Positions 16,448 through 16,514 of a DNA stretch of 26,066 bases are shown here, one piece after another. The stretch lies in NCBI RefSeq assembly GCF_003334255.1, contig NZ_QOWU01000064.1. One strand, 5' to 3'. The notes under the pieces are model-generated. The model did not search any database and was not told where the DNA came from. It worked only from the letters and a program-made list of their open reading frames with translations. The first letter of the stretch is position 1; every line of letters begins with the position of its first letter. Position numbers and translations under genes: made by a program. Source of the DNA: Escherichia coli (GTDB taxonomy: Bacteria; Pseudomonadota; Gammaproteobacteria; Enterobacterales; Enterobacteriaceae).

Positions 16448-16461
16448 TTGATTTAAATCAA
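16448..16461. promoter_or_regulatory. FNR box TTGAT-TTAA-ATCAA (perfect consensus) upstream of grcA
   Basis: Perfect match to TTGAT-N4-ATCAA, ~110 bp upstream of the grcA ATG. Confidence 0.75.
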
Positions 16462-16500
16462 TAAAAACCACACATCAAGTATGGTCGCAAATGGATTTTA

Positions 16501-16514
16501 TTGTTTTACATCAA
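16501..16514. promoter_or_regulatory. Second FNR-like box TTGTT-TTAC-ATCAA upstream of grcA
   Basis: One mismatch to consensus; centre is 53 bp from the first box. Confidence 0.6.

Follow-up and report, generated by a model that had tools for sequence, protein, structure and literature searches.

Two FNR boxes upstream of grcA in Escherichia coli very probably correspond to the characterised operators of the yfiD promoter, and their 53-bp spacing and weak distal half-site are conserved across Enterobacterales

In the stretch of E. coli DNA that we analysed (26,066 nucleotides; hereafter, the window), two FNR boxes lie upstream of grcA, and we are highly confident that they are the two characterised FNR operators of the E. 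coli grcA (yfiD) promoter. The dual-FNR promoter of grcA is already well studied (since 1998) and the yfiD promoter is already in use as an oxygen-responsive part in metabolic engineering, so that the finding in the window is correct, not new. It is a rediscovery of textbook-level FNR promoter architecture that matters little by itself and serves as a positive control, the coordinates, the spacing and the interpretation having all proved right. What our comparative analysis adds is small and confirmatory, and is not a discovery: both the 53-bp spacing of the boxes and the weak half-site of the distal box (box II) are conserved order-wide.

Results

The grcA locus and its genomic setting

The window is a K-12-like segment of the E. 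coli chromosome that is colinear with MG1655; around grcA, a coordinate in the window equals the NC_000913.3 coordinate minus 2,700,109. Both FNR boxes fall inside the 304-bp gap between grcA (yfiD), which is encoded on the minus strand, and ung, which is encoded on the plus strand (Table 1). GrcA matches the NCBIfam equivalog TIGR04365 with 234 bits against a cut-off of 170, and the 401-bp segment that spans the grcA–ung gap (16300-16700) is present as a single copy in every one of 5426 complete E. coli genomes. On the other side of grcA, where the convergent genes eamB and grcA are 55 bp apart, lies the strong hairpin listed in Table 1. On the grcA strand it has a T-run, and on the plus strand a stretch of A residues precedes it; it is probably a shared bidirectional terminator for eamB and grcA. 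Elsewhere in the window, matches at the Rfam gathering score comprise the OhsC sRNA (411-487), the rncO leader (3900-4114), the AsrC antisense RNA over rseC (6897-7728), the ES036 (CssrF) sRNA downstream of srmB (14195-14237) and, at the window end, a truncated 5S rRNA (rrfG, 25963-26066).

Table 1 Features of the grcA promoter region and its surroundings, in window coordinates
Feature	Position	Strand	Remarks
FNR I box (box I), TTGATTTAAATCAA	16448-16461	-	0 mismatches to TTGAT-N4-ATCAA; class II activating site, -40.5 in published numbering
FNR II box (box II), TTGTTTTACATCAA, reading TTGATGTAAAACAA on the grcA strand	16501-16514	-	1 mismatch; down-regulating site, -93.5 in published numbering
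-10 hexamer of the grcA promoter, TATATA	16420-16425	-	Conservation peak; starts 29.5 bp downstream of the centre of box I
Implied transcription start site (predicted)	16413-16414	-	16414 if the site numbering of the literature (-40.5) is used; 16413 if 7 nt are counted on from the -10 hexamer
PdhR-like palindrome (probable PdhR operator), AATTGGTAAAACCATTG	16390-16406		In the transcribed leader, at about +9 to +25; 2 mismatches, only match in the window
Shine-Dalgarno sequence of grcA, GGAGG	16347-16351	-	From sequence; conserved across species
grcA (yfiD) coding sequence, 127 aa plus stop	15957-16340	-	Open reading frame and RefSeq annotation; autonomous glycyl radical cofactor; gene driven by the promoter
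Intrinsic-terminator-like hairpin and T-run, 3' of grcA in the eamB–grcA gap	15909-15936	-	12-pair stem with 7 G-C pairs
ung	16645-17334	+	Divergent neighbour of grcA; uracil-DNA glycosylase

Two FNR boxes with centres 53 bp apart

The first-pass annotation of this DNA had claimed a pair of FNR boxes with centres 53 bp apart, the promoter-proximal one being of perfect consensus, and had equated the two with the sites at -40.5 and -93.5 of the yfiD/grcA promoter, of which the upstream one modulates activation. Direct reading together with a pattern search returned exactly this spacing, with box centres at 16454.5 and 16507.5 (53 bp, or 5.05 helical turns), and the box at 16448-16461 indeed departs from TTGAT-N4-ATCAA at none of its defined positions. 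The equation with the two published sites is borne out by their positions in the literature and by the mapping of cloning primers described below. In box II, the single mismatch falls in the promoter-proximal half-site, which on the grcA strand reads ACAA for the consensus TCAA.

The number of FNR-like sites is by itself weak evidence for FNR boxes: the window holds three sites that depart from the FNR consensus at no more than one position, where 1.02 would be expected, and three or more turned up in 11 of 100 shuffles. For a perfect FNR site, on the other hand, the expectation is only 0.034 per window, and in first-order Markov simulations a pair of sites with no more than one mismatch each came to lie within 100 bp in 5 runs out of 1000. 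The third match in the window, TTGATGCTGATGAA (8494-8507; one mismatch), is located inside the coding sequence of rseB, and we rejected it as an FNR site, matches of this kind being at chance level.

Published yfiD promoter constructs map onto the boxes

The cloning primers of a set of yfiD promoter variants were taken from the supplement of PMC10208419 and mapped onto the window. The primers for yfiD-WT match 16502-16525 and 16397-16418 exactly, and the yfiD-P1 construct, from which FNR II has been deleted, corresponds exactly to 16397-16474 and thus holds box I only. In the primer for yfiD-m, all but two positions agree with the window, the exceptions being 16503 (G) and 16512 (C), the key bases of box II. 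Primer by primer, m095, m096 and m098 match the window exactly, and m097 carries the two substitutions, at 16503 and 16512, by which FNR II was knocked out, and no others.

Papers that cite Green et al. 1998 (PMID 9767578) place the FNR sites of the yfiD promoter at -40.5 and -93.5 and describe the upstream one as down-regulating; the -40.5 position is likewise credited to Green 1998 in the tabulation of Myers 2013 (PMC3688515). Among the cloned constructs, yfiD-P1 is listed with stronger activity under complete anaerobiosis, and flow cytometry put yfiD-WT in the too-weak class, with yfiD-m and yfiD-P1 both far above it (PMC10208419). The activity of the wild-type yfiD promoter is higher microaerobically than anaerobically (Marshall et al. 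2001, as cited in PMC10208419).

At the genome scale, there is an FNR ChIP-seq peak at yfiD whose top-scoring site is the one at -40.5, and in the absence of oxygen both σ70 occupancy and expression of yfiD go up (Myers et al. 2013, PMC3688515). The same study counts one FNR site under the yfiD peak, and the genome-scale data therefore leave the occupancy of box II to older, targeted work. These data also bear on whether the protein that binds the boxes might be CRP or some other member of the CRP/FNR family instead of FNR, which we regard as close to impossible. The palindromes recognised by CRP and FNR are related, but both boxes contain the FNR-type TTGAT...ATCAA core and not the CRP-type TGTGA-N6-TCACA, and both FNR ChIP-seq signal and FNR-dependent expression are documented for yfiD (PMC3688515).

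The core promoter has class II geometry

The distance of 29.5 bp from the centre of box I to the start of the -10 hexamer is the canonical geometry of a class II promoter. A σ70 consensus scan of 15850-16700 found no TTGACA/TATAAT pair and no full promoter. The missing recognisable -35 element at grcA is as expected for a class II, activator-dependent promoter and, because class II promoters do without a -35 element, the empty scan is not evidence against a promoter at this site. The perfect TTGAT-N4-ATCAA box overlaps the -35 region, without a good -35 hexamer, as in a class II promoter.

Transcription had been predicted to start near 16410 on the minus strand. In substance we arrive at the same prediction, but the implied start (Table 1) lies a few nucleotides away from that position; it corresponds to 2716522-2716523 of MG1655 (NC_000913.3, minus strand) and would give a 5' UTR of ~74 nt. 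At the implied +1 (16414) the transcript strand has a T, which is unusual; judged by the geometry of the -10 hexamer, 16413 would be a better +1, as would an A close by, at 16412 or 16416. Neither name of the gene (grcA, yfiD) occurs in the SMRT-Cappable-seq supplements, and a full-text literature search for grcA together with TSS and FNR gave no match.

At the grcA promoter of many Enterobacterales there is an extended -10 element (CTGGTATATA or CTGATATATA), but the TG is missing from E. coli, which reads GAGTATATA at the corresponding place (16426-16428). In Escherichia, the grcA core promoter may therefore be weaker and more FNR-dependent than in the species with an extended -10.

Variation within E. 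coli spares both boxes

In 2873 of 5413 complete E. coli genomes, the 101-bp promoter core (16431-16531) is only 90-95% identical to the window, and this level of identity in over half of the genomes suggests two or more promoter haplotypes; 13 genomes gave no megablast match to the core. In five divergent E. coli strains that we sampled, no SNP hits either 14-mer and indels are absent; the SNPs cluster in the spacer from box I to the -10 hexamer and in the stretch that separates the boxes. This stretch also contains a terminator-like hairpin followed by a T-run (16466-16486, minus strand). We rejected this hairpin as a terminator; it probably arose by chance, its stem being weak (3 G-C pairs) and its DNA being polymorphic in E. 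coli and diverged between species.

The box pair and its spacing are conserved across Enterobacterales

A GrcA-based scan with one genome per species yielded 80 loci, 64 from Enterobacterales and 16 from Pasteurellaceae. Two FNR-like boxes 52-53 bp apart are found in 62 of the 64 species of Enterobacterales (53 bp in 58 of them, 52 bp in 4), and shuffled upstream regions contained such a pair in 12 of 12,800 cases; at the level of sequence, the conservation of the pair settles that the boxes are real. The spacing between the boxes has a standard deviation of 0.25 bp, and the distance from the pair to the grcA start codon one of 9.6 bp. The TTGA/TCAA half-sites of box I are invariant in all 62 pair-bearing species of Enterobacterales, and the non-consensus A at position 11 of box II is kept in 56 of these 62.

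Across species, the DNA between the boxes and the spacer from box I to the -10 hexamer have diverged almost completely, and the conserved islands are box II, box I, the TATATA hexamer (16425-16420) and a leader block at 16386-16410. The conserved "defect" of box II argues for selection of a weaker distal site, in line with the published affinity-based model, and the fact that the spacing and the imperfect half-site of box II have been retained amid drifting DNA supports the affinity-based explanation that has been published for the microaerobic optimum. The only two loci of Enterobacterales without the distal box come from Pantoea sp. IMH (L051) and Pantoea sp. WMus005 (L066) and would be natural promoters that lack FNR II.

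The comparison bears directly on whether box II might be an accidental near-match in AT-rich intergenic DNA, with box I the only functional site. Sites with one mismatch do arise by chance about once per 26 kb, and Myers 2013 (PMC3688515) lists a single FNR site for yfiD. However, chance would have to account for a spacing of 52-53 bp that is held in nearly all of the species examined despite diverged flanking DNA, for the lack of any change in box II among the divergent E. coli strains sampled and for published constructs in which mutating or deleting box II raises anaerobic promoter output (PMC10208419). We consider a chance origin of box II extremely improbable.

It is also conceivable that box II serves the divergent ung promoter and makes uracil-DNA glycosylase oxygen-responsive, instead of or besides modulating grcA. 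Box II lies 137.5 bp upstream of the ung start codon in the window, the divergent grcA–ung order is kept in 78 of the 80 loci, and there are conserved blocks on the ung side of the intergenic region. Nevertheless, box II stands anywhere from 111.5 to 240.5 bp away from the ung start codon (standard deviation 19.8 bp) but at a fixed distance from box I, the name ung is absent from the main text of the FNR regulon paper, and the consensus scan recognised no σ70 promoter at a suitable distance. Since the spacing to box I is fixed and the distance to ung drifts, box II is positioned relative to box I; we rejected box II as an ung element on account of this variable distance and think a role at ung very unlikely. 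As for the ung-side blocks themselves, they comprise GATTTT (16583-16588) and GAAAGAAGCAGTTAAG (16597-16612), the latter 33-48 bp upstream of the ung start codon, and they could be part of the promoter or leader of ung.

Candidate sites for PdhR and ArcA

The palindrome in the transcribed leader is, going by its sequence, probably an operator for the repressor PdhR. A scan with the PdhR consensus at three or fewer mismatches gave one match against 1.31 expected, so that the count alone is not significant; we accepted the site solely on the strength of its position in the best-conserved block of the leader and of the published control by PdhR. In particular, yfiD is described as repressed by PdhR, with relief by pyruvate, in two papers that cite Wyborn 2002 for it (PMC3181329, PMC10572922). 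The block that holds the palindrome (16386-16410) is kept in Enterobacteriaceae, Yersiniaceae and Hafniaceae and is absent in Erwiniaceae, Pectobacteriaceae and Rahnella. A scan for ArcA sites with a crude direct-repeat pattern (TGTTA-N6-TGTTA, at most two mismatches) gave 20 matches against 17 expected, which is chance level, with none in the grcA–ung intergenic region.

Discussion

A model for the oxygen response of grcA

The sequences, the spacing, the identity with the published constructs and the conservation of the boxes, their spacing, the weak half-site and the -10 hexamer come from our analysis; FNR occupancy, activation, down-regulation and the microaerobic optimum are taken from the literature. 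FNR is reported to activate yfiD from -40.5 and to damp it from -93.5 (PMC10208419, PMC3688515 and PMC3445967, with Green 1998 as represented in citing papers). According to the literature, moreover, ArcA raises yfiD expression by disrupting FNR binding, and yfiD is listed as ArcA(+), FNR(+/-) and PdhR(-) and as induced 5- to 12-fold on a shift to micro-aerobiosis. As for the exact start site, the lower affinity of box II (from its ACAA half-site) and the assignment of the PdhR box, these are what we infer.

We propose that at low oxygen, dimers of [4Fe-4S]-FNR would bind the perfect proximal box (at about -40.5/-41.5), and FNR bound there would act as a class II activator of RNA polymerase. 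The distal box, five helical turns further upstream (-93.5) and with one half-site off consensus, would be the weaker site. When FNR activity is high, as under full anaerobiosis, the distal box would be filled too and the second dimer would damp the activation exerted by the first, and expression would therefore peak microaerobically. This would be when GrcA is needed to rescue pyruvate formate-lyase that has been cleaved by oxygen. ArcA would counteract the distal FNR dimer, and PdhR, probably bound at the leader palindrome, would repress the promoter until pyruvate accumulates.

We are evenly divided on a broader reading of the comparative data, according to which a strong box, five helical turns and a deliberately weak box would together constitute a selected oxygen band-pass design in essentially all Enterobacterales, with the ACAA half-site under purifying selection, and Pasteurellaceae would have rebuilt the control with a 42-44 bp spacing and a stronger core promoter. 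If this were true, grcA would provide a natural series in which to study how the oxygen optimum of an FNR promoter depends on the affinity and the spacing of its sites.

Comparison with known systems

The closest known system is the E. coli yfiD promoter itself as published (Green, Baldwin & Richardson 1998; Marshall et al. 2001; Wyborn et al. 2002), with which the window shares the locus, the boxes, the 53-bp spacing, the gene and its neighbours. The published yfiD fragments are identical in sequence to the window save for the two engineered FNR II substitutions in yfiD-m. Among simple class II FNR promoters, such as those of narG, dmsA, nirB, pykA and ynfE, which have one site at -40.5/-41.5, the proximal box of grcA and its 29.5-bp distance find their match. 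What sets grcA apart from these promoters is a further FNR box, 53 bp upstream and on the same face of the helix, whose effect is to damp activation and not to assist it.

The upstream regions of grcA in Pasteurellaceae belong to an orthologous gene with ung still as its divergent neighbour, and in several species they likewise contain two FNR-like boxes. Their layout nonetheless differs from that in E. coli, the boxes being 42-44 and not 53 bp apart and several species having one box only. In the loci concerned (L046, L056, L060, L065, L070, L077 and L082), the pair or the single box lies ~85-140 bp upstream of grcA. The Pasteurellaceae genes have a near-consensus promoter (TTGAAA-N16/17-TGATAAAAT), and the centre of the proximal box lies ~36.5-37.5 bp from its -10 element; by this geometry, the boxes would stand near -49 and -93.

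Tandem CRP promoters resemble yfiD in that a class II promoter becomes less active when its activator also binds upstream as a second dimer (PMC3445967). The repression at the tandem CRP promoters, however, works through the αCTD, which is not involved at yfiD (PMC3445967).
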